From Escherichia coli (GTDB lineage: Bacteria > Pseudomonadota > Gammaproteobacteria > Enterobacterales > Enterobacteriaceae): a stretch of 64,000 nt of DNA. A program made the position numbers and the translations under genes. Location of the stretch: the NCBI RefSeq assembly GCF_024502345.1, contig NZ_JALDNN010000001.1. One strand, 5' to 3'. Below the pieces are notes generated by a model. It made no database searches and was not told where the DNA came from. It saw only the letters and a program-made list of their open reading frames with translations. This document shows, in pieces, positions 7,522-49,722 of the stretch (the stretch's first letter is position 1; each line of letters starts with the position of its first letter).

Positions 7522-7795
7522 TGACCAAAAACCTCTTTGCGTCACATTTTTACAACAATTATTGCAGAGAAAATTAATGCTATTGGAATGAAGAGAGTAA
7601 CGAATGGCTAAACTGGCTAACCCGAATGACGAAAAATTCTGGAAAACAGCACGCAATTTCGTGAAGTGATTATTTTCGTCCCTAAGGAAACCTCATAGGA
7701 TGCCTGCGGGTGCCTGAGACTTTCTGTTTTCAGGCTAACCGGGAATCAGAAAGACGAAGGCCCCGACCGATATTTCTATCAACCGAGGCCAACGA

Positions 7796-8003
<208 letters not shown>

Positions 8004-8418: not shown

Positions 8419-8483
8419 CTTCCGATGTAGACCCGTATTCTTCGCCTGTACCACGGGTCGGTTTTAGTACAGGCGTTTTCTTT
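8419..8483 (+). ncRNA. rydC: RydC small RNA (Hfq-dependent pseudoknot sRNA)
   Basis: DNA CTTCCGATGTAGACCCGTATTCTTCGCCTGTACCACGGGTCGGTTTTAGTACAGGCGTTTTCTTT matches the remembered RydC sequence and ends in a T-run, next to cybB. Confidence 0.7.
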
Positions 8484-34295: not shown

Positions 34296-34718
34296 ATGAA
34301 GAAACTAGCCGCGTTTGTTGCGCTAAGCCTGCTGATGGCGGGATGTGTAAGTAATGACAAAATTGCTGTTACGCCAGAACAGCTACAGCATCATCGCTTT
34401 GTGCTGGAAAGCGTAAACGGTAAGCCCGTGACCAGCGATAAAAATCCGCCAGAAATCAGCTTTGGTGAAAAAATGATGATTTCCGGCAGCATGTGTAACC
34501 GCTTTAGCGGTGAAGGCAAACTGTCTAATGGTGAACTGACAGCCAAAGGGCTGGCAATGACCCGTATGATGTGCGCTAACCCGCAGCTTAATGAACTCGA
34601 TAACACCATTAGCGAAATGCTGAAAGAAGGTGCACAAGTGGATCTGACCGCGAACCAGTTAACGCTGGCGACCGCGAAACAGACATTAACTTATAAGCTG
34701 GCGGATTTAATGAATTAA
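34296..34718 (+). CDS. hslJ: Heat-inducible lipoprotein HslJ (META domain)
   Basis: 140 aa from the internal Met, MKKLAAFVALSLLMAGC lipobox. Confidence 0.85.
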   Translation: MKKLAAFVALSLLMAGCVSNDKIAVTPEQLQHHRFVLESVNGKPVTSDKNPPEISFGEKMMISGSMCNRFSGEGKLSNGELTAKGLAMTRMMCANPQLNELDNTISEMLKEGAQVDLTANQLTLATAKQTLTYKLADLMN

Positions 34719-34981
34719 TAGCTGCCACAGCTCCCGGCGGCAAGTGACTGTTCGCTACAGCGTTTGCCGTTGGGTAATGCACACATCCCAATCGCCGTAC
34801 CATCCAGTTGACGGGCAACAGAAAGCGAACCGCCGATCATTGCACAATTTGCTTCTCCACTACTGGACATCGACGCTTTTAAACCTGGCGCTACGTGCGC
34901 CGCAGTCGCCTGCTGAACAGGTTCACTACTACACGCCGACAACAATAAAGCGGCACACCCTACCCAAAACGCTGCTCGCAT
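34715..34981 (-). CDS. ydbJ: DUF333 lipoprotein YdbJ
   Basis: 88 aa, MRAAFWVGCAALLLSAC lipobox; convergent with hslJ. Confidence 0.7.
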   Translation of the reverse strand: MRAAFWVGCAALLLSACSSEPVQQATAAHVAPGLKASMSSSGEANCAMIGGSLSVARQLDGTAIGMCALPNGKRCSEQSLAAGSCGSY

Positions 34982-35254
34982 CTCTTCTTCCTCTGATCTT
35001 CAAGCCAAACGACACCGCCATAAATAATAGGCAGCACAGAGGGCGGCGTCGAGAGCTGTCCTGCGCATTGCCCCGCATTTTTACTTTTTTATGGCTATTT
35101 TTTTGCCCTCTGTTTGATCAAAACATTCATTACGCTGATGTGGGGGACACAAAAGCGAAAATGCAGAAGAAAGCCATTTGCTAAAATTGAAGGATTACTA
35201 CTGGGCGCGCAGCAATTTCGTGCGCCCCTCATTTGCGCAATGTAAGGGTGTCAT

Positions 35255-38200
35255 ATGATTACTATTGACGGTAATGGCGCGGTTGCTTCGGTGGCGTTTC
35301 GCACCAGTGAAGTTATCGCCATCTACCCTATTACCCCCAGTTCCACGATGGCAGAACAGGCTGATGCCTGGGCCGGAAACGGCTTGAAGAACGTTTGGGG
35401 AGACACACCACGCGTGGTTGAAATGCAGTCGGAAGCGGGTGCTATCGCTACCGTGCATGGCGCTTTGCAGACGGGTGCCCTTTCAACATCGTTTACGTCA
35501 TCGCAGGGTTTGCTGCTGATGATCCCGACGCTGTACAAACTGGCAGGCGAACTCACACCGTTTGTCCTGCATGTAGCGGCACGTACCGTTGCCACACATG
35601 CACTCTCTATTTTTGGCGATCATTCCGACGTCATGGCGGTGCGCCAGACGGGTTGCGCGATGTTGTGTGCGGCAAACGTCCAGGAAGCGCAAGACTTTGC
35701 TCTCATTTCGCACATCGCGACGCTGAAAAGCCGCGTGCCATTTATTCATTTCTTTGATGGTTTCCGCACGTCCCACGAAATCAACAAAATTGTCCCGCTG
35801 GCCGATGACACGATTCTTGATCTCATGCCGCAGGCCGAAATTGATGCTCATCGCGCCCGGGCACTCAACCCGGAACATCCGGTGATCCGCGGTACGTCCG
35901 CCAATCCTGACACTTATTTCCAGTCTCGCGAAGCCACCAACCCATGGTACGACGCGGTCTATGACCATGTTGAACAGGCGATGAATGATTTCTCTGCCGC
36001 GACAGGTCGTCAGTATCAGCCGTTTGAATATTACGGGCATCCGCAAGCGGAACGGGTGATTATCCTGATGGGCTCTGCCATTGGCACCTGTGAAGAAGTG
36101 GTTGATGAATTGCTAACCCGTGGCGAAAAAGTCGGCGTGCTGAAAGTTCGCCTGTACCGCCCCTTCTCAGCCAAACACTTGCTACAAACTCTACCGGGAT
36201 CCGTACGTAGCGTGGCGGTACTGGACAGAACCAAAGAACCCGGTGCCCAGGCAGAACCGCTCTATCTGGATGTGATGACCGCACTGGCAGAAGCCTTTAA
36301 TAATGGCAAGCGCGAAACTCTGCCCCGTGTCATTGGTGGGCGCTATGGTCTTTCATCCAAAGAATTTGGCCCGGACTGTGTACTGGCGGTATTTGCCGAG
36401 CTCAACGCGGCTAAACCGAAAGCGCGCTTTACGGTTGGTATTTACGATGATGTAACCAATCTGTCCCTGCCGTTGCCGGAAAACACCCAGCCAAACTCGG
36501 CGAAACTTGAAGCCTTGTTTTATGGCCTTGGTAGTGATGGCAGCGTTTCCGCGACCAAAAACAATATCAAGATTATCGGTAATTCCACGCCGTGGTACGC
36601 ACAGGGCTATTTTGTTTACGACTCCAAAAAGGCGGGCGGCCTGACGGTTTCTCACCTTCGAGTGAGCGAACAGCCGATTCGTTCCGCTTATCTCATTTCC
36701 CAGGCTGATTTTGTTGGCTGCCACCAGTTGCAGTTTATCGATAAATATCAGATGGCTGAGCGTTTGAAACCTGGCGGCATTTTCCTGCTCAACACACCGT
36801 ACAGCGCAGATGAAGTGTGGTCGCGCTTGCCGCAAGAAGTTCAGGCCGTGTTAAACCAGAAAAAAGCGCGCTTCTATGTGATTAACGCGGCGAAAATCGC
36901 CCGCGAATGTGGCCTGGCGGCCCGTATTAATACCGTCATGCAGATGGCTTTTTTCCATCTGACGCAAATTCTGCCTGGCGATAGCGCCCTCGCAGAATTG
37001 CAGGGTGCGATTGCCAAAAGTTACAGTAGCAAAGGCCAGGATCTGGTGGAACGCAATTGGCAGGCTCTGGCGCTGGCGCGTGAATCCGTAGAAGAAGTTC
37101 CGTTGCAACCGGTAAATCCGCACAGCGCCAATCGACCGCCAGTGGTTTCCGATGCCGCTCCTGATTTCGTGAAAACCGTAACCGCTGCGATGCTCGCCGG
37201 GCTTGGTGACGCCCTCCCCGTTTCGGCGCTGCCGCCAGACGGCTCCTGGCCGATGGGCACTACGCGCTGGGAAAAACGTAATATTGCCGAAGAGATCCCC
37301 ATCTGGAAAGAGGAACTCTGTACCCAATGTAACCACTGCGTTGCCGCTTGCCCACACTCAGCTATTCGCGCAAAAGTGGTGCCGCCTGAAGCGATGGAAA
37401 ACGCCCCTGCCAGCCTGCATTCGCTGGATGTGAAATCGCGTGATATGCGCGGGCAGAAATATGTCTTGCAGGTGGCACCGGAAGATTGCACCGGTTGTAA
37501 CCTGTGCGTCGAAGTTTGCCCGGCGAAAGACCGTCAGAATCCAGAGATTAAAGCCATCAATATGATGTCTCGCCTGGAACATGTCGAAGAAGAGAAAATC
37601 AATTACGATTTCTTCCTCAACCTGCCAGAAATCGACCGTAGCAAACTGGAACGTATTGATATTCGTACATCGCAGCTGATTACACCGCTGTTTGAATATT
37701 CAGGTGCTTGCTCCGGTTGTGGCGAGACGCCGTATATTAAATTACTGACTCAGCTCTATGGCGACCGGATGTTGATCGCTAACGCCACTGGCTGTTCTTC
37801 AATTTATGGCGGTAACCTGCCCTCTACACCGTATACCACCGATGCCAACGGTCGTGGGCCGGCATGGGCGAACTCTCTATTTGAAGATAATGCCGAATTT
37901 GGCCTTGGTTTCCGCCTGACGGTCGATCAACACCGTATCCGCGTGCTGCGTCTGCTGGATCAATTTGCCGATAAAATCCCGGCGGAATTACTGACGGCGT
38001 TGAAATCAGACGCCACGCCAGAGGTTCGTCGTGAACAGGTTGCAGCTTTACGCCAGCAACTCAACGATGTTGCCGAAGCACATGAACTGCTACGTGATGC
38101 AGATGCACTGGTGGAAAAATCAATCTGGCTGATTGGTGGTGATGGCTGGGCTTACGATATCGGCTTTGGCGGTCTGGATCATGTATTGAGTTTGACGGAA

Positions 38201-38779
38201 AACGTCAACATTCTGGTGCTGGATACGCAATGCTATTCCAACACCGGTGGTCAGGCGTCGAAAGCGACACCGCTGGGTGCAGTAACTAAATTTGGCGAGC
38301 ACGGCAAACGTAAAGCGCGTAAAGATCTTGGCGTCAGTATGATGATGTACGGTCATGTTTATGTGGCGCAGATTTCTCTCGGCGCGCAGCTGAACCAGAC
38401 GGTGAAAGCGATTCAGGAAGCGGAAGCGTATCCGGGGCCATCGCTGATCATTGCTTATAGCCCGTGTGAAGAGCATGGTTACGATCTGGCACTCAGCCAC
38501 GACCAGATGCGCCAACTCACAGCTACCGGCTTCTGGCCGCTATATCGCTTCGATCCTCGTCGTGCCGATGAAGGCAAACTGCCGCTGGCGCTGGATTCAC
38601 GCCCGCCGTCAGAAGCACTGGAAGAAACGTTACTTCACGAGCAACGTTTCCGTCGTCTGAATTCGCAGCAGCCAGAAGTGGCAGAACAGTTATGGAAAGA
38701 TGCTGCAGCTGATTTGCAAAAACGCTATGACTTCCTGGCACAAATGGCCGGAAAAGCGGAAAAAAGCAACACCGATTAA
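35255..38779 (+). CDS. ydbK: Pyruvate:flavodoxin/ferredoxin oxidoreductase (NifJ-like PFOR)
   Basis: 1174 aa; PFOR domain order with two 4Fe-4S CxxCxxCxxxCP motifs (CTQCNHCVAACP, CTGCNLCVEVCP) and a TPP-binding region. Confidence 0.9.
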   Translation: MITIDGNGAVASVAFRTSEVIAIYPITPSSTMAEQADAWAGNGLKNVWGDTPRVVEMQSEAGAIATVHGALQTGALSTSFTSSQGLLLMIPTLYKLAGELTPFVLHVAARTVATHALSIFGDHSDVMAVRQTGCAMLCAANVQEAQDFALISHIATLKSRVPFIHFFDGFRTSHEINKIVPLADDTILDLMPQAEIDAHRARALNPEHPVIRGTSANPDTYFQSREATNPWYDAVYDHVEQAMNDFSAATGRQYQPFEYYGHPQAERVIILMGSAIGTCEEVVDELLTRGEKVGVLKVRLYRPFSAKHLLQTLPGSVRSVAVLDRTKEPGAQAEPLYLDVMTALAEAFNNGKRETLPRVIGGRYGLSSKEFGPDCVLAVFAELNAAKPKARFTVGIYDDVTNLSLPLPENTQPNSAKLEALFYGLGSDGSVSATKNNIKIIGNSTPWYAQGYFVYDSKKAGGLTVSHLRVSEQPIRSAYLISQADFVGCHQLQFIDKYQMAERLKPGGIFLLNTPYSADEVWSRLPQEVQAVLNQKKARFYVINAAKIARECGLAARINTVMQMAFFHLTQILPGDSALAELQGAIAKSYSSKGQDLVERNWQALALARESVEEVPLQPVNPHSANRPPVVSDAAPDFVKTVTAAMLAGLGDALPVSALPPDGSWPMGTTRWEKRNIAEEIPIWKEELCTQCNHCVAACPHSAIRAKVVPPEAMENAPASLHSLDVKSRDMRGQKYVLQVAPEDCTGCNLCVEVCPAKDRQNPEIKAINMMSRLEHVEEEKINYDFFLNLPEIDRSKLERIDIRTSQLITPLFEYSGACSGCGETPYIKLLTQLYGDRMLIANATGCSSIYGGNLPSTPYTTDANGRGPAWANSLFEDNAEFGLGFRLTVDQHRIRVLRLLDQFADKIPAELLTALKSDATPEVRREQVAALRQQLNDVAEAHELLRDADALVEKSIWLIGGDGWAYDIGFGGLDHVLSLTENVNILVLDTQCYSNTGGQASKATPLGAVTKFGEHGKRKARKDLGVSMMMYGHVYVAQISLGAQLNQTVKAIQEAEAYPGPSLIIAYSPCEEHGYDLALSHDQMRQLTATGFWPLYRFDPRRADEGKLPLALDSRPPSEALEETLLHEQRFRRLNSQQPEVAEQLWKDAAADLQKRYDFLAQMAGKAEKSNTD

Positions 38780-38808
38780 ATGCTCTGGATAAGGATTATC
38801 CAATTCTA

Positions 38809-38917
38809 AAAAAAAGCCCGGACGACTGTTCGGGCTTGTCTTTTTATATGTTGGAAAATCAGTGGCAATGCAATGGCCCAACAGAAAATAAAATCTGTGA
38901 CAATAAAGGCATATAAC
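38809..38917 (-). ncRNA. micC: MicC small RNA (porin-regulating, Hfq-dependent)
   Basis: The minus strand reads GTTATATGCCTTTATTGTCACAGATTTTATTTTCTGTTGGGCCATTGCATTGCCACTGATTTTCCAACATATAAAAAGACAAGCCCGAACAGTCGTCCGGGCTTTTTTTT, matching remembered MicC; divergent from ompN and sharing a bidirectional hairpin with the ydbK 3' end. Confidence 0.8.
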
Positions 38918-39144
38918 CCGCGCAGAATAACGTATAGAAAATTAAAAGTATAATTTTTATTTTGTATGTATTATCTTCGATACATTCACCAGACTTATTA
39001 TCATTTCAGAAGAATTATTTGATTAAGGTTTTACTTAAGGCGTAACAAATGATATTTATCGGCTAACTGAACTTCTCCTTTAGGATGTTTTCACTCCCCG
39101 GAATGGGGATAAAAGGCAAATAAAATAACTAAAGGATTTATTCA

Positions 39145-40278
39145 ATGAAAAGCAAAGTACTGGCACTTTTAAATCCTGCCCTGCTCGCCGCAGGTGCTGC
39201 ACATGCAGCCGAAGTTTATAATAAAGACGGCAACAAATTAGATCTGTATGGCAAAGTTGATGGCCTGCATTATTTTTCTGATAATTCAGCGAAAGATGGC
39301 GATCAGAGCTATGCGCGTCTGGGTTTTAAAGGCGAAACCCAAATTAACGATCAACTCACTGGCTACGGTCAATGGGAATACAATATTCAGGCAAACAACA
39401 CTGAATCTTCAAAAAACCAGTCATGGACCCGTCTGGCATTTGCCGGGCTGAAATTTGCAGATTACGGTTCTTTCGATTACGGACGTAATTATGGCGTAAT
39501 GTACGACATCGAAAGCTGGACCGATATGCTGCCTGAATTTGGCGGTGACTCTTATACCAATGCAGACAACTTTATGACTGGTCGTGCCAACGGCGTCGCG
39601 ACTTATCGTAATACTGATTTCTTCGGTCTGGTAAATGGTCTGAACTTCGCGGTGCAGTATCAAGGTAACAACGAAGGTGCCAGTAATGGTCAGGAAGGCA
39701 CCAACAACGGACGTGATGTTCGCCATGAAAATGGTGACGGCTGGGGTCTTTCCACAACATATGATTTAGGCATGGGCTTTAGCGCTGGTGCGGCATACAC
39801 CTCATCTGACCGCACCAATGACCAGGTTAACCATACTGCGGCGGGTGGTGATAAAGCAGACGCGTGGACTGCTGGGCTAAAATACGATGCTAACAATATT
39901 TACCTGGCAACCATGTATTCAGAAACGCGTAATATGACCCCGTTTGGCGACAGCGATTATGCTGTTGCAAACAAAACCCAGAACTTTGAAGTCACTGCAC
40001 AGTACCAGTTTGATTTTGGTCTGCGTCCGGCAGTCTCTTTCCTGATGTCTAAAGGCCGTGACCTGCACGCTGCCGGTGGTGCAGACAACCCGGCAGGTGT
40101 TGATGATAAAGATCTTGTTAAATACGCCGATGTTGGCGCGACTTACTATTTCAATAAAAACATGTCCACTTATGTTGACTATAAAATCAACCTGTTGGAT
40201 GAAGATGACAGTTTCTACGCTGCCAACGGCATCTCTACCGATGATATTGTCGCTTTAGGTCTGGTTTATCAGTTCTAA
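39145..40278 (+). CDS. ompN: Outer-membrane porin N (OmpC/OmpF family)
   Basis: 377 aa with a signal peptide and the general-porin C-terminus ...LGLVYQF. Confidence 0.9.
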
Positions 40279-40286
40279 ATCCTCCT

Positions 40287-40310
40287 GCCCGCTGTTATGG
40301 CGGGCTTTTT
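40287..40310 (+). terminator. Rho-independent terminator after ompN
   Basis: GCCCGC-tgttatg-GCGGGC followed by TTTTT. Confidence 0.6.
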
Positions 40311-40337
40311 CTGCTTATTCTTCCTCCTTTGATCTAA

Positions 40338-40853
<516 letters not shown>

Positions 40854-40860
40854 CACTAAC

Positions 40861-40885
40861 GCCCGCACATTGCTGCGGGCTTTTT
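40861..40885 (+). terminator. Rho-independent terminator after uspF
   Basis: GCCCGCA-cattgct-GCGGGC followed by TTTTT. Confidence 0.6.
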
Positions 40886-41028
40886 GATTCATTTCGCAAA
40901 TGTGCTGACATTTTCCCCTCTAATCCGTACCATACACGCCACTGTTTTTATATCAGATTTCTTATGCTGGGCATTCCGGCATGACGCATACTCTTCTGAT
41001 GCCATATAACGAATTGAGTCGCTTTTAA

Positions 41029-41964
41029 ATGTCGCAAAATCAAGAAATTAGTAAGAAAGAACAATACAACCTGAACAAATTACAAAAACGTCTGCGTCGT
41101 AACGTGGGCGAAGCCATTGCTGACTTCAATATGATTGAAGAAGGCGATCGCATCATGGTTTGCCTCTCCGGGGGTAAAGACAGCTATACCATGCTGGAGA
41201 TTCTGCGCAATTTGCAGCAAAGCGCGCCAATCAATTTTTCGCTGGTGGCTGTTAACCTCGATCAAAAGCAACCGGGCTTCCCGGAACACGTTCTGCCCGA
41301 GTATCTTGAAAAGCTGGGCGTTGAGTACAAGATTGTCGAAGAGAACACTTACGGTATCGTGAAAGAGAAGATTCCAGAGGGCAAAACCACTTGCTCACTG
41401 TGTTCTCGCCTTCGTCGCGGTATCCTTTATCGTACCGCAACGGAACTGGGGGCGACGAAGATCGCGCTGGGTCACCATCGTGACGATATCCTGCAGACGT
41501 TGTTCTTAAATATGTTCTACGGCGGCAAGATGAAAGGTATGCCTCCGAAACTGATGAGCGATGATGGCAAACATATCGTTATTCGTCCGCTGGCCTACTG
41601 CCGCGAGAAAGATATTCAGCGATTTGCCGATGCAAAAGCGTTCCCGATTATTCCGTGCAACCTGTGCGGTTCACAGCCTAACCTGCAACGTCAGGTGATT
41701 GCTGACATGTTGCGTGACTGGGATAAACGTTATCCAGGGCGTATCGAGACGATGTTCAGCGCGATGCAGAATGTGGTGCCGTCGCATCTGTGCGATACTA
41801 ACCTGTTCGATTTCAAAGGCATCACCCACGGTTCTGAAGTGGTTAACGGGGGTGATTTGGCGTTTGATCGCGAAGAGATCCCACTACAACCGGCGGGCTG
41901 GCAGCCAGAAGAAGATGAAAATCAGTTGGATGAGTTACGGCTGAATGTGGTTGAAGTGAAATAA
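41029..41964 (+). CDS. ttcA: tRNA 2-thiocytidine(32) synthetase
   Basis: 311 aa; SGGKDS PP-loop motif and CxxC motifs. Confidence 0.9.
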
Positions 41965-42011
41965 CCAAGATGGCGCCCGATGCGCAAGCGTATCGGGCTA
42001 CTCTTATGGAG

Positions 42012-42045
42012 GCCGGATAAGACGCGGCCAGCGTCGCATCCGGCA
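42012..42045. repeat. REP (repetitive extragenic palindrome) unit between ttcA and dbpA
   Basis: GCCGGATAAGACGCGGCCAGCGTCGCATCCGGCA. Confidence 0.5.
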
Positions 42046-42092
42046 ATCCCGAATAAGATGTTTACTCTTGCACCCGGCAATTCAACATTTCA

Positions 42093-43466
42093 TTATTTTA
42101 ATAACCGCACCCGGCACGTTTTTCCTTTAATCTTCCCGCCCTGTAACTGTTTCCATGCTTTATGAGCAACAGCCTGACGGACCGCGACATAGACATGCGC
42201 CGGATGCACGGCGATTTTGCCAATATCTGCGCCATCAAGCCCGATATCTCCTGTCAGTGCACCTAATACATCACCCGGGCGCATTTTGGCTTTTTTCCCG
42301 CCATCAATACACAACGTTGCCATTTCTGCTTCCAGCGGCACAATGGAACTATTAGCTGGCGGCGTTTGCCAGTTAAGTTTTATCTGCAACATGTCAGAAA
42401 TGATATTGGCCCGCTGTGCTTCTTCCGGAGCACAGAAACTGATCGCCAGACCGCTATTTCCTGCACGAGCTGTACGGCCGATGCGATGTACATGAACTTC
42501 AGGGTCCCACGCCAGCTCAAAGTTCACCACCAGCTCAAGCGATTTAATATCCAGACCACGCGCAGCAACATCAGTCGCAACCAGTACACGGGCGCTACCG
42601 TTAGCAAAACGTACCAGGGTCTGATCGCGATCGCGTTGCTCCAAATCGCCGTGTAATGACAATGCACTTTGCCCTACTTCATTCAGCGCGTCGCAGACAG
42701 CCTGGCAATCTTTTTTGGTATTGCAAAACACCACGCAAGAGGATGGCTGATGCAAGCTTAATAACCGTTGCAACAGAGGAATTTTGCCTTTGCTGGATGT
42801 CTCATAAAATTGTTGTTCAATGGGTGGCAAAGCATCTGTTGAGTCAATTTCAATCGCCAAAGGATCGCGTTGCACTCGTCCGCTGATTACGGCGATGGCT
42901 TCCGGCCAGGTTGCCGAAAACAGAAGCGTCTGTCGAGATGCAGGCGCAAAACGGATGACATCATCAATGGCATCGCTAAATCCCATATCCAGCATGCGGT
43001 CGGCCTCATCCATCACCAAAGTATTCAGCGCATCCAGTGATACCGTGCCTTTTTGCAAGTGATCCAGCAAACGACCCGGCGTTGCAACGATAATATGCGG
43101 CGCATGTTGCAACGAATCACGCTGCATACCGAACGGTTGACCACCGCACAACGTCAAAATTTTGGTATTTGGGAGAAAACGCGCCAGCCGACGCAATTCA
43201 CCTGCCACCTGATCCGCCAGTTCACGCGTAGGACACAGCACTAAAGCCTGGGTTTGAAATAGCGACGCATCAATTTGCTGTAACAAGCCGAGGCCAAAAG
43301 CCGCCGTTTTGCCGCTGCCGGTTTTCGCCTGCACGCGAACATCTTTTCCGGCAAGGATCGCCGGAAGCGCGGCGACCTGCACCGGCGTCATGGTTAAATA
43401 ACCCAACTCATTAAGGTTCGTGAGTTGGGCGGGAGGCAAAACATGCAGGGTAGAAAAAGCGGTCAC
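42093..43466 (-). CDS. dbpA: ATP-dependent RNA helicase DbpA (DEAD box, 23S rRNA-dependent)
   Basis: 457 aa; Q motif, AKTGSGKT Walker A and DEAD motif. Confidence 0.9.
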   Translation of the reverse strand: MTAFSTLHVLPPAQLTNLNELGYLTMTPVQVAALPAILAGKDVRVQAKTGSGKTAAFGLGLLQQIDASLFQTQALVLCPTRELADQVAGELRRLARFLPNTKILTLCGGQPFGMQRDSLQHAPHIIVATPGRLLDHLQKGTVSLDALNTLVMDEADRMLDMGFSDAIDDVIRFAPASRQTLLFSATWPEAIAVISGRVQRDPLAIEIDSTDALPPIEQQFYETSSKGKIPLLQRLLSLHQPSSCVVFCNTKKDCQAVCDALNEVGQSALSLHGDLEQRDRDQTLVRFANGSARVLVATDVAARGLDIKSLELVVNFELAWDPEVHVHRIGRTARAGNSGLAISFCAPEEAQRANIISDMLQIKLNWQTPPANSSIVPLEAEMATLCIDGGKKAKMRPGDVLGALTGDIGLDGADIGKIAVHPAHVYVAVRQAVAHKAWKQLQGGKIKGKTCRVRLLK

Positions 43467-43726
43467 AATCTATTCTCGTGGTCATCGACGCAAAGTTAGC
43501 AGGCGCGTATCCTCGCAGATCTACGCTCACGATGCGACAATTTAATCGGTTCTTCATCAGGTGGTGGGTCAGGCATGGGTTGCGGGCGAGGGATCGGATC
43601 GGGCACTGGAACAGGATCGCCAGGAATCGGTTCAGGGACAGGAATTTGCAAATAAATAAGTGTCGTCATATTTCCCTCCGGTCATTGGGTGGACTCTTAA
43701 AGGGTAGACGCTGATAAATAACAGGC

Positions 43727-43848
43727 AAAAAAAAGCCGACTCATCAAAGTCGGCGTCGTACGAATCAATTGTGCTATGCAGTAATTCAAAAAAGGAAGTA
43801 AGACAATATGGAGCGCAACGCCCATCGCTTGACGTTGCATTCACCTGC
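43727..43848 (-). ncRNA. fnrS: FnrS small RNA (FNR-activated, Hfq-dependent)
   Basis: The minus strand reads GCAGGTGAATGCAACGTCAAGCGATGGGCGTTGCGCTCCATATTGTCTTACTTCCTTTTTTGAATTACTGCATAGCACAATTGATTCGTACGACGCCGACTTTGATGAGTCGGCTTTTTTTT, matching remembered FnrS, with a terminal hairpin and T-run. Confidence 0.8.
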
Positions 43849-43883
43849 AAGGGAGATATTGCCCTGAATGGGTAGAGAGTTTA

Positions 43884-43897
43884 TTGACTTCGCTCAA
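43884..43897 (-). promoter_or_regulatory. FNR site (TTGAG-N4-GTCAA) centred about 42 bp upstream of the fnrS 5' end
   Basis: The minus strand reads TTGAGCGAAGTCAA; position fits a class II FNR-activated promoter. Confidence 0.6.
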
Positions 43898-43943
43898 ACT
43901 TTGCGGCGTTTTTGTATACAGACAGCCGGAAAAATTGCTTTTG

Positions 43944-44948
<1,005 letters not shown>

Positions 44949-45181
44949 TTATTTTGTAGTCTAGCCTTCTGGCCCTGTTACGCAACATCTCATCACCCCA
45001 TTACCCTGAAATGATTAATAAAATTCTGTCTAAATTGAATACAAAAAGCAAAATGCTTTTCCGTATACAAACCGTGTGAAGTGTTAAATAGCGTCTATCA
45101 TTATCAGAATTATCTGATCATATGACGTGGCTTTTTTGCGATCGGATAGCAACAAAAATTGATAAAAATAACGGGATCTCA

Positions 45182-46414
45182 ATGATTACGCACAACTTCA
45201 ATACCCTGGACTTACTCACCAGTCCTGTCTGGATCGTTTCGCCCTTTGAGGAACAGTTAATTTATGCCAATAGCGCGGCGCGACTGTTGATGCAAGACCT
45301 CACGTTTAGTCAGCTACGAACCGGTCCCTATTCCGTCTCCTCACAAAAAGAACTGCCGAAATACCTCTCCGATCTGCAAAACCAACACGATATTATCGAA
45401 ATCCTCACTGTTCAGCGTAAAGAAGAGGAAACAGCATTAAGCTGTCGGCTTGTTTTGCGAAAGCTGACAGAAGCAGAACCGGTGATTATTTTCGAAGGTA
45501 TCGAAGCGCCGGCAACGCTGGGTTTAAAAGCCAGTCGCTCGGCAAATTATCAGCGCAAAAAACAAGGTTTTTATGCGCGCTTTTTTCTGACTAACTCTGC
45601 ACCAATGTTGTTGATTGCCCCCTCACGAGATGGCCAAATCGTCGATGCTAACCTCGCCGCGCTCAATTTCTATGGTTATAACCATGAAACGATGTGCCAG
45701 AAACATACCTGGGAAATAAATATGCTCGGGCGTCGCGTCATGCCTATCATGCATGAAATTTCGCATTTACCCGGTGGTCATAAACCTCTGAATTTTATTC
45801 ATAAGCTGGCGGATGGTTCGACTCGTCATGTGCAGACCTACGCCGGGCCGATTGAAATTTATGGCGACAAGCTCATGTTATGTATTGTGCATGATATTAC
45901 TGAGCAAAAACGGCTGGAGGAGCAGCTGGAACATGCTGCTCACCATGACGCGATGACCGGATTACTGAATCGGCGACAGTTTTATCACATTACGGAACCA
46001 GGCCAAATGCAGCATCTCGCCATCGCTCAGGATTACAGCTTGTTGCTCATCGACACCGATCGTTTTAAACACATTAACGATCTCTATGGGCATTCTAAAG
46101 GTGATGAGGTGTTATGCGCCCTCGCCCGCACCCTCGAAAGTTGCGCTCGCAAAGGCGATTTGGTGTTTCGTTGGGGAGGCGAAGAGTTTGTCTTATTGCT
46201 ACCAAGAACCCCACTGGATACCGCGCTTTCGCTGGCTGAAACTATCCGCGTAAGCGTGGCAAAAGTGAGTATTTCGGGCTTACCACGCTTTACCGTCAGC
46301 ATTGGTGTGGCGCATCACGAAGGAAATGAAAGCATCGATGAACTGTTTAAACGCGTTGATGATGCTTTGTATCGGGCGAAAAATGATGGACGCAACCGCG
46401 TGCTGGCGGCATAA
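45182..46414 (+). CDS. dgcM: PAS-PAS-GGDEF diguanylate cyclase (active site reads GGEEF)
   Basis: 410 aa from the internal Met, MITHNFNTLDLLTSPVWIVSP...; RWGGEEF motif. Confidence 0.8.
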   Translation: MITHNFNTLDLLTSPVWIVSPFEEQLIYANSAARLLMQDLTFSQLRTGPYSVSSQKELPKYLSDLQNQHDIIEILTVQRKEEETALSCRLVLRKLTEAEPVIIFEGIEAPATLGLKASRSANYQRKKQGFYARFFLTNSAPMLLIAPSRDGQIVDANLAALNFYGYNHETMCQKHTWEINMLGRRVMPIMHEISHLPGGHKPLNFIHKLADGSTRHVQTYAGPIEIYGDKLMLCIVHDITEQKRLEEQLEHAAHHDAMTGLLNRRQFYHITEPGQMQHLAIAQDYSLLLIDTDRFKHINDLYGHSKGDEVLCALARTLESCARKGDLVFRWGGEEFVLLLPRTPLDTALSLAETIRVSVAKVSISGLPRFTVSIGVAHHEGNESIDELFKRVDDALYRAKNDGRNRVLAA

Positions 46415-46434
46415 GCCGCGGATGCGTCTCGTGA

Positions 46435-46998
46435 TCAACGGCTGCGCTTAGCGTGGCGCTCCCAGTTTTCTTGCTTCGCCTGCGCCGTTTTACGTAGTGC
46501 GACATAACACGCCCCGCTGCCGCCATGATGCGGTAGCGCGGTGCAATATGCCTGAACATCATCAAATTCGGTCAGCCAGCGCGCCACATAGCTGCGGACA
46601 ATATTGGCATGCGATTTATCATCCCGCCCTTTACCATGAATAATCAGCACGTTACGCAAACTATCCGCCAGGGCTTGTTGAATGAAACTGAACACCATTT
46701 TGCGGCACTCTTCCACCGGCTGGCGCAAAAGATTCAGGCTCGCCTGTTGCGGATATTTACCACTGCGAAGCTTATCCAGCACCCCATGTTGCAACCCTTC
46801 CCGCCGAAACTCCAGCGGCTGACTTAGTGGGATGATGTCGAGAAATCCGGTGGTGAGGAAATTATCAAGCTGCAGCGTGTCGATACGCTGCGGCGCACGT
46901 TGGTTACGCGTTGGATGCCAGTGGACATCGGTAGCACGTTTCAGCGGCTGGACATCTTCCATGGCGTCAAGAAACAGCGATTTGTCGTCAAGGTTCAT
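46435..46998 (-). CDS. smrA: Smr-domain DNA endonuclease
   Basis: 187-aa ORF in the conserved position between dgcM and abgR. Confidence 0.75.
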   Translation of the reverse strand: MNLDDKSLFLDAMEDVQPLKRATDVHWHPTRNQRAPQRIDTLQLDNFLTTGFLDIIPLSQPLEFRREGLQHGVLDKLRSGKYPQQASLNLLRQPVEECRKMVFSFIQQALADSLRNVLIIHGKGRDDKSHANIVRSYVARWLTEFDDVQAYCTALPHHGGSGACYVALRKTAQAKQENWERHAKRSR

Positions 46999-47283
46999 GT
47001 TACATCCTCCCGCAATTAAGAGCGCGATATGATAACCAGACCGGGTCGGTCCAACAACGTATTACCCAAAATTCCAGTAATAAGTTCCAAATATTGCCGA
47101 TATTTTAAGCAAAATGCTTATGCATGATTATTCATTCACGATATTAATAATGTAACTTATATTTTCGTGAAATCTGTCACTGAAGAAAATTGGCAACTAA
47201 AGGTTAAAACCGTTATAACACAGTCACCGGCGCAGAGGAGACAATGCCGGACTTAAGACGCGGATGCACTGCTGTGTGTACTG

Positions 47284-47319
47284 TAGAGTCTGGCGGATGT
47301 CGACAGACTCTATTTTTTT
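47284..47319 (+). terminator. Strong plus-strand hairpin with T7 run and no plus-strand CDS upstream; possible sRNA 3' end (IsrA-like position)
   Basis: TAGAGTCTG-gcggatgtcga-CAGACTCTA followed by TTTTTTT; lies in the smrA-abgR intergenic region, where both flanking genes are on the minus strand. Confidence 0.35.
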
Positions 47320-47327
47320 ATGCAGTT

Positions 47328-48236
47328 TTAACTTTGCAGATAGCCGCATTCTCGCCGGAATTGCGTGATTAATGACGCGGTCAGTGGTGTCTGGCGACTA
47401 TCACGCCGCTGAATCAAATAATAGGCCGCTTTCGGTAAAATTTCGCTAACCGGCAACATCACCAGCCCCTGTCCATGCAAGGGATCGCAGCCCATTTCTT
47501 CAGGCAGTATGCTGAGAAAATCGCTTTTTGCCACCAGACTGATACAGGCTGAGAACGTCTCGCAGACTACACCGACCTGTGGCGTTTGCGCCTGATCGTC
47601 AAGCAATTCACTCAACTGTTTGTAGTAACTGCCGTGTGGCGTCGGCATTGTCCAGCTGTAATCCAGTAACTGTTTGATCGAACGGGCACCAATGGCGGGG
47701 TGTCCCGGGCGGCAAAAGATCGCGAATTGCTTTTCCAGTAATTTCTCAAAAGTAAATTCGTGGTCGTACGGTCCCTGATAATAGGTATTGATGGTGAAAT
47801 CCAATTCTCCCTGACGCAATTCATTAATCATCGACACCAGTTGCCCTTCCATAATGCGTACTTTTACCTGCGGATGCTGCTGATGAAAACGAGATATGAC
47901 AGCTGGCATCAGACTGCGGGAAATACTGGCCCCCATGCCGATATTAATCTGCCCTGCCAGTTGCCCTTGTCGTTGGCGAATATCCTCTTGGGCTGCGCGC
48001 AGCTCTTCAAGAATAAGACTGGCGTGCTGATAAAAACTTTCACCGGCATCAGTTAACGTCACGCCTTTACTACGGCGAAAAAAGAGTTGCGCCGCTAATC
48101 CTTCTTCCAGCTCCTGAATAGATTTACTCCGTGCCGGTTGCGACATATTCAACATTCGGCTCGCTCCGCGAATGCTGCCCTGACGAGCCACTTCAACAAA
48201 AGCCCGAATTTGATGAATTTTTACCTGAAAAGCCAT
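47328..48236 (-). CDS. abgR: LysR-family regulator of the abg operon
   Basis: 302 aa, MAFQVKIHQIRAFVEVARQGSIRGASRMLNMSQPARSKSIQELEE; divergent from abgA. Confidence 0.85.
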   Translation of the reverse strand: MAFQVKIHQIRAFVEVARQGSIRGASRMLNMSQPARSKSIQELEEGLAAQLFFRRSKGVTLTDAGESFYQHASLILEELRAAQEDIRQRQGQLAGQINIGMGASISRSLMPAVISRFHQQHPQVKVRIMEGQLVSMINELRQGELDFTINTYYQGPYDHEFTFEKLLEKQFAIFCRPGHPAIGARSIKQLLDYSWTMPTPHGSYYKQLSELLDDQAQTPQVGVVCETFSACISLVAKSDFLSILPEEMGCDPLHGQGLVMLPVSEILPKAAYYLIQRRDSRQTPLTASLITQFRRECGYLQS

Positions 48237-48411
48237 GACGCCACCGATAACCGTTATTTATCAGACCAAAGAAACTGGCATCTACTTTAATGCAGATGAT
48301 TGTGTCAGGGTAATTTATGAACGGTTAAAACTGTGAAAAATCAGTTAGTGATAAGTAAAAACTATCGCTACGTGAACCGGGTCACACTTTTTACTGATGA
48401 CGGGAAAGGTT

Positions 48412-49722
48412 ATGGAGTCTTTGAATCAATTTGTTAATTCGCTTGCCCCAAAATTATCGCACTGGCGACGTGATTTTCATCACTATGCAGAGTCTGGCTG
48501 GGTGGAATTCCGCACTGCCACCCTTGTTGCGGAAGAATTGCAGCAGCTCGGCTATTCACTGGCGCTGGGCCGCGAAGTAGTTAATGAAAGTAGCCGGATG
48601 GGACTACCTGATGAACTCACTCTACAACGCGAATTCGAGCGCGCTCGTCAACAGGGTGCGCTAGCACAATGGATTGCGGCTTTTGAAGGTGGTTTCACTG
48701 GTATCGTCGCCACCCTGGATACCGGTCGCCCCGGTCCGGTGATGGCTTTCCGTGTCGATATGGACGCGCTGGATCTCAGTGAAGAGCAGGATGTCAGCCA
48801 TCGCCCCTACCGCGACGGTTTTGCGTCATGTAACGCCGGAATGATGCATGCCTGTGGTCATGATGGGCATACCGCCATTGGGCTTGGGCTGGCGCATACC
48901 CTTAAACAGTTCGAGTCCGGACTACATGGCATCATCAAACTGATTTTTCAACCTGCAGAAGAAGGTACGCGTGGCGCGCGGGCGATGGTCGATGCAGGTG
49001 TAGTGGATGATGTTGATTATTTTACTGCCGTGCACATTGGCACTGGCGTACCTGCGGGCACCGTGGTGTGCGGCAGTGATAATTTTATGGCAACCACCAA
49101 ATTTGACGCGCACTTCACCGGGACCGCCGCTCACGCAGGCGCAAAACCAGAAGACGGTCACAATGCCTTGTTGGCGGCAGCACAAGCAACTCTTGCACTG
49201 CATGCAATCGCCCCGCACAGCGAAGGCGCTTCCAGAGTAAACGTGGGCGTTATGCAGGCAGGAAGCGGTCGTAATGTTGTTCCTGCCTCGGCGTTGCTGA
49301 AAGTGGAAACACGCGGGGCCAGCGACGTCATTAATCAATATGTTTTTGACCGTGCACAACAAGCGATTCAGGGCGCAGCAACCATGTATGGTGTCGGCGT
49401 TGAAATTCGTCTGATGGGTGCAGCTACCGCCAGTTCTCCTTCGCCGCAATGGGTCGCATGGTTGCAAAGTCAGGCGGCTCAGGTCGCGGGGGTCAATCAG
49501 GCCATTGAACGTGTCGAAGCGCCTGCGGGTTCCGAAGATGCCACATTAATGATGGCCCGCGTGCAGCAACATCAAGGGCAAGCCTCCTACATGGTGTTTG
49601 GCACACAGCTGGCGGCAGGTCATCACAACGAAAAATTCGATTTTGACGAGCAGGTTCTCGCTATTGCCGTCGAAACGCTGGCGCGCACCGCGCTCAATTT
49701 TCCCTGGACGCGAGGTATCTGA
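48412..49722 (+). CDS. abgA: p-Aminobenzoyl-glutamate hydrolase subunit A (M20 peptidase)
   Basis: 436 aa from the internal Met, MESLNQFVNSLAPKLSHWRRDFHHYAESGW...; its stop overlaps the abgB start (TGATG). Confidence 0.85.
   Translation: MESLNQFVNSLAPKLSHWRRDFHHYAESGWVEFRTATLVAEELQQLGYSLALGREVVNESSRMGLPDELTLQREFERARQQGALAQWIAAFEGGFTGIVATLDTGRPGPVMAFRVDMDALDLSEEQDVSHRPYRDGFASCNAGMMHACGHDGHTAIGLGLAHTLKQFESGLHGIIKLIFQPAEEGTRGARAMVDAGVVDDVDYFTAVHIGTGVPAGTVVCGSDNFMATTKFDAHFTGTAAHAGAKPEDGHNALLAAAQATLALHAIAPHSEGASRVNVGVMQAGSGRNVVPASALLKVETRGASDVINQYVFDRAQQAIQGAATMYGVGVEIRLMGAATASSPSPQWVAWLQSQAAQVAGVNQAIERVEAPAGSEDATLMMARVQQHQGQASYMVFGTQLAAGHHNEKFDFDEQVLAIAVETLARTALNFPWTRGI

Follow-up and report, generated by a model that had tools for sequence, protein, structure and literature searches.

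A single hairpin between the convergent genes ydbK and micC of Escherichia coli very probably acts as an asymmetric two-way intrinsic terminator, with transcripts of the two genes that overlap by 38 nt. The element on the minus strand is the E. coli micC gene, an already known sRNA gene in its usual position between ompN and ydbK. It was analyzed as part of the window, which here denotes the whole stretch of 64,000 nt of E. coli DNA. The identity of MicC, the gene layout, the folds of both strands, and the conservation were established in this study, and the ydbK 3′ end as well as the length and function of MicC were taken from published K-12 data. Knowledge of MicC, of where it lies, and of its terminator dates back to 2004, and published tables already contain the ydbK 3′ end. 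The points that are mildly new are confined to the strand asymmetry and to the lineage polymorphism of the U-tract on the ydbK side.

Identification of micC and its genomic context

The Rfam family RF00121 (MicC) matches the window at 38800-38920 on the minus strand with 125.3 bits (gathering score 90, E = 2e-19), and the match spans the full model (positions 1-123 of 123). An earlier note, made from the sequence alone, had placed a 109-nt MicC gene on the minus strand at 38809-38917 and had named an Rfam search as the way to check it; the search gave this strong match, well over the gathering score, and the left boundary of the note lies at most 1 nt from the end of the U-tract at 38808. The published length is likewise 109 nt (Chen et al. 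2004, as quoted in PMC5745476). Read from 38917, the minus-strand RNA starts with GUUAUAUGCCUUUAUUGUCAC and ends in ...GCCCGAACAGUCGUCCGGGCUUUUUUUU. The window is chromosomal DNA and is oriented as the reverse complement of K-12 MG1655 near 1.437 Mb. Its micC agrees with the K-12 gene (RF00121, b4427; 1437121..1437231) in the flanking genes, in the seed, which is complementary to the ompC leader, and in the terminator hairpin, A.C mismatch included, and differs from it solely in the A-run encoding the U-tail (8 A here and 9 in K-12), a common polymorphism. A stretch of 701 bp around micC has matches in 5413 of 5426 complete E. coli genomes, with a top identity of 99.9%. The automated PGAP annotation shows no feature at micC in the RefSeq E. 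coli genomes that were displayed, and the curated K-12 record alone carries an ncRNA.

The coordinates of the features are collected in Table 1. The gene is convergent with ydbK and divergent from ompN, and the ydbK stop codon (38777-38779) is separated from the MicC U-tail by 28 nt. This layout, with ompN and micC head to head and micC and ydbK tail to tail, is that of K-12, which bears out the statement in the note that the divergent arrangement of micC and ompN is preserved. The YdbK protein shows 9 amino-acid differences from that of K-12. For the divergent pair, micC-lacZ and ompN-lacZ fusions were found to be co-regulated (PMC5745476). A similar arrangement is known from micF and ompC, where an sRNA gene also lies head-to-head with a porin gene and represses another porin (PMC5745476). 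In contrast to MicC, MicF belongs to another sRNA family and targets ompF, and micF starts about 335 bp before the ompC start codon.

Table 1. Features of the ydbK-micC-ompN region in window coordinates
Feature	Position	Strand	Basis
ydbK (nifJ, pfo) CDS, pyruvate:ferredoxin/flavodoxin oxidoreductase, 1174 aa	35255..38779	+	ORF list; RefSeq annotation of K-12 and strain WEC
ydbK 3′ UTR, 66 nt	38780..38845	+	Stop codon; TRS 3′ end; fold
micC (MicC sRNA), 110 nt with the whole U-run	38808..38917	-	RF00121 match; identity with K-12 micC
A8 run on the plus strand, MicC 3′ U-tail (termination U-tract, expected Hfq-binding tail)	38808..38815	-	Sequence; RF00121
Hairpin of the probable shared terminator, plus strand AAGCCCGGAC-GACT-GTTCGGGCTT	38814..38837	.	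Folds of both strands; pattern scan
ydbK-side tail GTCTTTTTAT, with mapped ydbK 3′ end at 38844/38845	38838..38847	+	Pattern scan; TRS terminus
MicC 5′ seed, nt 1-16 (GUUAUAUGCCUUUAUU)	38902..38917	-	Complementarity to the ompC leader
Divergent micC-ompN control region, 227 bp	38918..39144	.	Spacing between micC and ompN
ompN CDS, quiescent porin OmpN, 377 aa	39145..40278	+	ORF list; RefSeq annotation of K-12 and WEC

Several further observations concern the surroundings of the gene. Residue 10 of OmpN (window 39172-39174), which lies in the hydrophobic core of the signal peptide, is Asn here and Ile in K-12 and in the closest strain, WEC. The 43-mer around this codon (39152-39194) has no match in the 5426 complete E. 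coli genomes, and the change is therefore either private or a sequencing error; the exchange of Ile for Asn could impair export of this quiescent porin. The cryptic prophage Rac, which occupies 23 kb in K-12 (1411899-1434958), is absent from the window. Window positions 34539-41078 align with K-12 1434959-1441500 and positions 41036-48477 with K-12 1404500-1411941, and the two alignments overlap by 43 nt (41036-41078) inside ttcA, which represents the unoccupied attachment site. Due to the absence of Rac, micC lies about 4.9 kb from fnrS here, compared with about 28 kb in K-12. The window also contains Rfam matches above the gathering score for FnrS (43731-43848, minus strand, 134.8 bits) and McaS (47226-47321, plus strand, 117.6 bits), the genes of which are annotated in K-12, as well as for RydC (8419-8482, plus strand, 92.5 bits) and the sok antitoxin RNA (7708-7859, plus strand, 111.5 bits).

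The 5′ seed of MicC and its target

Nucleotides 1-16 of MicC are a perfect complement of positions -29 to -14 of the ompC leader; the leader sequence was taken from K-12, and ompC lies outside the window. For the duplex of seed and leader an energy of -27.6 kcal/mol is predicted, a value that was reached by none of 1000 shuffled seeds. The first 20 nt of MicC are invariant in 39 homologues among the matches listed, which says little because the pattern used to collect them itself fixed most of these positions. K-12 MicC has been described as an Hfq-dependent RNA of about 109 nt that lowers OmpC (Chen et al. 2004, as quoted in PMC5745476). Here, transcription would proceed leftwards from 38917 and end at a Rho-independent terminator, formed by the hairpin at 38814-38837 followed by 8 U, and pairing of the MicC 5′ end with the ompC mRNA leader would repress OmpC synthesis. 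No micC promoter was called by the consensus scan. MicC is poorly expressed in standard media and was undetected by one study in late logarithmic or stationary growth.

Structure of the terminator hairpin on both strands

Shared terminators between convergent genes are commonplace. As in bidirectional intrinsic terminators, a G+C-rich palindrome flanked by an A-tract and, opposite it, by a T-tract is found here between convergent units, so that the RNA of each strand consists of a hairpin and U residues; for the ydbK side a 3′ end has been mapped. In contrast to such terminators, the present element is markedly asymmetric: GUC intervenes between the stem and the U-tract on the ydbK side. This tract is restricted to Escherichia among the matches listed and differs between E. 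coli strains, but the MicC side does not vary. Our literature search found no paper that names MicC together with a bidirectional terminator or that calls this hairpin bidirectional, and no in vitro or reporter assay of factor-independent termination at it.

The hairpin lies 34 nt past the ydbK stop codon, between the convergent transcription units, and doubles as the 3′ end of micC. The sequence quoted for it in the earlier note (AGCCCGGACGACTGTTCGGGCTT) occupies exactly 38815-38837, and the flanking runs described there are found as A8 at 38808-38815 and as TTTTT at 38841-38845, the latter with GTC between stem and T-run. The minus-strand RNA has the form GCCCGAAC-AGUC-GUCCGGGC followed by U8, with the U-tract directly after GGGC; its stem contains an internal A.C mismatch and reaches -11.8 kcal/mol with the flanking A-U pairs. 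The plus-strand RNA, GCCCGGAC-GACU-GUUCGGGC followed by UUGUCUUUUUAU, forms a stem of 10 bp including one G.U pair where the minus strand has A.C. This fold reaches -15.8 kcal/mol (z = -3.75), its stem is flanked by A and U tracts able to extend it, and the U-tract in the sense of ydbK (UUGUCUUUUU) is interrupted. The terminator is thus asymmetric, combining a long U-tract with a mismatched stem in the MicC sense and a better stem with a weaker U-tract in the ydbK sense.

The consensus pattern scan called a terminator on the plus strand at 38814-38837, with the tail given in Table 1, and left the minus-strand terminator uncalled under its loop limit of at most 8 nt. This miss is explained by the A.C mismatch, which makes the loop exceed the 8-nt rule, rather than by an absent signal, since both the fold and the Rfam match show the terminator. 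The generic pattern is no rarer than in shuffled sequences (1 found, 2.2 expected), so that two-way termination has to be argued from position, folding, and published 3′ ends instead of from the pattern count. A terminator score of the d'Aubenton-Carafa form, which is approximate because modern energy values were used, amounts to +22.9 when read in the direction of micC and to +6.3 in that of ydbK; both values exceed the threshold of 0, the latter by a narrow margin.

Mapped transcript 3′ ends and alternative explanations

A TRS study (PMC10687069) lists a terminus for ydbK on the K-12 minus strand with a peak at 1437187-1437202 and the dominant position 1437194. It appears in at least three tables of that study, with replicate p-values down to 1e-105 and a sharp peak (signal 0.93-1.0), and is strong in the exponential-phase tables for LB and minimal medium (EG). 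The terminus at 1437193/4 ends in ...CGGGCUUGUCUUUUU, and the upstream sequence is given as ...AAAAAAAAAGCCCGGACGACUGUUCGGGCUUGUCUUUUU with a hairpin of -16.9 kcal/mol. Anchored on the micC 5′ end, K-12 1437193/4 corresponds to window positions 38845/38844, and the K-12 sequence is the same here. The ydbK 3′ end thus falls on the final U residues encoded by the T-run, at a distance of 8 nt from the stem, and the last 38 nt of the resulting 3′ UTR (38808-38845) overlap and are complementary to the MicC 3′ end.

Mapping of 3′ ends in both directions had also been named as a check in the note, and for the ydbK direction it leads to the hairpin. On the plus strand, the same palindrome would fold into the more stable hairpin, followed by UUGUCUUUUU, and would end the ydbK mRNA at 38844/5, 66 nt past the stop codon; we attribute this end to intrinsic termination rather than to trimming. 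For micC, no terminus was found among the listed entries of the TRS tables (PMC10687069), and the MicC 3′ end is taken from the RefSeq annotation and from the 109-nt length as quoted from the literature. Neither strand is represented by a micC or ydbK entry, or by any entry at 14371xx or 14372xx, in the 3′-end lists for LB and M63 of Adams et al. 2021 (PMC7815308), and the TERMITe supplements (PMC12207403) hold no entry for the micC/ydbK region.

The foremost alternative is that the hairpin terminates micC alone, and that ydbK transcription continues past it, either in the direction of ompN or as far as a Rho-dependent site further on, with the 3′ end at 38844/5 produced by 3′-to-5′ exonuclease trimming back to the hairpin. 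An end located 8 nt behind a stable hairpin can also result from such trimming, the U-tract on the ydbK side is weak and poorly conserved, and the lists of Adams et al. 2021 lack a 3′ end on either strand here. Furthermore, the class given to this terminus in the TRS study is ‘alternative primary in TU’ (PMC10687069), meaning that EcoCyc groups ydbK and a gene downstream of it into one transcription unit, and the title of Fabrega et al. 2012 reports a SoxS-dependent co-regulation of ompN and ydbK. On the other hand, an end at the last U of U5, 8 nt past the stem, is the canonical position of intrinsic termination, the peak is sharp, and both the pattern scan and the classical score were passed. 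We therefore regard trimming as an unlikely source of this end and retain intrinsic termination at the two-way hairpin.

The TRS class of the ydbK terminus indicates that this termination is probably partial. The claim in the earlier note that the hairpin can also terminate ydbK accordingly stands as far as the scan call, the 10-bp fold, and the mapped 3′ end are concerned, and has to be restricted with regard to efficiency. A further qualification is that the U-tract on the ydbK side is interrupted and lacks conservation outside Escherichia and in about a third of E. coli genomes. Read-through RNA from ydbK towards ompN would be antisense to micC over its full length.

It has also been proposed for convergent gene pairs and bidirectional terminators of E. 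coli that transcription ends through collision of RNA polymerases (bioRxiv 10.1101/2022.10.23.513370). Applied to ydbK and micC, head-on collision at the hairpin would be the main cause of both ends. The existence of this model for E. coli convergent pairs and the transcript overlap of 38 nt speak for it, but the hairpin-plus-U signals are present on both strands here, unlike in the terminators for which the model was proposed. Moreover, the ydbK terminus is strong, whereas no MicC 3′ end was found among the listed LB, M63, and EG entries and MicC escaped detection in one study. Since the strong ydbK terminus occurs where the tables record no micC terminus, termination of ydbK would not need convergent micC transcription, and we consider collision as the main mechanism very improbable.

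Conservation across genera

Homologues were collected by a scan of one genome per species with a 17-base pattern, which returned at least 120 loci, about two thirds of them chance matches; the cross-genus sample comprises about 37 loci among the matches listed. All 33 loci with enough flanking sequence among these matches have a convergent nifJ whose stop codon is located 14-33 nt away from the MicC tail, and they represent six genera (Escherichia, Citrobacter, Salmonella, Klebsiella, Pseudocitrobacter, and Superficieibacter). The spacing between micC and ompN in the window recurs in 19 listed loci from other Escherichia, Citrobacter, Klebsiella, Pseudocitrobacter, and Superficieibacter, at 221-228 bp wherever the OmpN match extends to residue 1. 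In two Salmonella loci, in which nifJ is kept and convergent, the 3-4 kb upstream of micC yielded no OmpN homologue; a divergent porin gene is thus not a feature of every micC locus.

The seven outer pairs of the hairpin are invariant in the 39 homologues among the matches listed, and the innermost stem pair shows four compensatory changes from C-G to U-A in the same set. The MicC tail comprises 7-10 U in all of these aligned homologues, and the middle of the RNA varies. On the opposite side, the nifJ-side tail reads GUCUUUUUAU in Escherichia (window and K-12), GUCAAUUUAUUCGC in Citrobacter and Salmonella, GUCGUUUUACC in Klebsiella, and GUCAUAAAUACC, without a U-tract, in Superficieibacter. 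A run of T5 on this side is found only in Escherichia among the matches listed, and the tails outside Escherichia have terminator scores at or below zero on the approximate scale used. As the U-tract on the ydbK side is not conserved, selection seems to act mainly on the MicC direction. The simplest reading of these alignments would be that selection maintains the MicC terminator and tail, that the nifJ mRNA has always ended near the hairpin, and that the clean second U-tract is a recent and non-universal feature of Escherichia.

Conservation of seed, hairpin, and U-tail across genera, together with the identity to the experimentally characterized K-12 gene, the intact complementarity to ompC, and the Rfam E-value of 2e-19 over the full model, by which a chance match is excluded, leaves a negligible probability for a chance resemblance or decayed copy at a locus without functional MicC, for which the missing PGAP annotation in most RefSeq E. 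coli genomes and the weak expression in standard media might be adduced.

Variation within E. coli

Alleles were counted as exact matches of the 38-nt hairpin-plus-tail sequence in the 5426 complete E. coli genomes. The T5 allele (TTTTT) of the window and K-12 has 3713 exact matches (~68%), the TTCTT allele of Nissle 859, and the TCATT allele of WCHEC96200 629. The changes in the T-run (38841-38845), seen at three of the aligned loci, affect at the same time the A-rich sequence that immediately precedes the MicC terminator stem. All three alleles carry a derived G at window position 38821 (plus strand), which leads to A.C in the MicC stem and to G.U in the ydbK sense, and the A.C mismatch is therefore present in ~96% of the genomes. 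The same stem position is a Watson-Crick pair in other Escherichia species and in other genera. A second change of like kind (GTCCGG) was observed in an O145 strain. The A-run that encodes the MicC U-tail varies in length within E. coli, with 8 in the window, 9 in K-12, and 10 in WCHEC020031, and the exact 71-nt allele of the window (A8) occurs in 891 complete E. coli genomes. A hairpin allele from another contig labelled E. coli was rejected as an E. coli variant; it has no match in a complete E. coli genome and fits other Escherichia species.

Two further observations were made next to the hairpin. The ydbK 3′ UTR contains, between stop codon and terminator, an inverted repeat of 7 bp (TGGATAA-GGA-TTATCCA, 38786-38802). 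Its arms are kept in the other aligned Escherichia species and the 3-nt loop varies (GGA, CGA, TTA); within E. coli, one strain has the loop GAA and Nissle has one arm base changed. The repeat is absent from the other genera aligned. The second observation concerns E. coli SC418 (NZ_LR778147.1, 3302583-3302924), in which the end of nifJ downstream of the micC terminator is replaced by a G+C-rich hairpin adjoining a frameshifted IS200/IS605 transposase gene. The MicC tail is A7 in this strain, and the non-nifJ sequence implies that an insertion or rearrangement abuts the MicC U-tail.

Implications

A more far-reaching interpretation, which we regard as improbable, is that the terminator on the ydbK side represents a leaky and lineage-variable attenuator. 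If this were true, strong induction of ydbK (SoxS, RpoS) would lead to antisense read-through across micC into ompN and thus to a ydbK-ompN transcript. A perfect anti-MicC RNA or interference with micC transcription would result, and ompN expression would be coupled to the loss of MicC. The polymorphism of T5, TTCTT, and TCATT would then set the extent of read-through in each E. coli lineage.

For the two-way terminator itself, the finding has little importance beyond correct annotation, and the practical point is that automated RefSeq annotation omits micC in most E. coli genomes. Lineage differences in the U-tract on the ydbK side could serve as a natural experiment in which terminator strength and the read-through into micC antisense RNA and ompN are compared.
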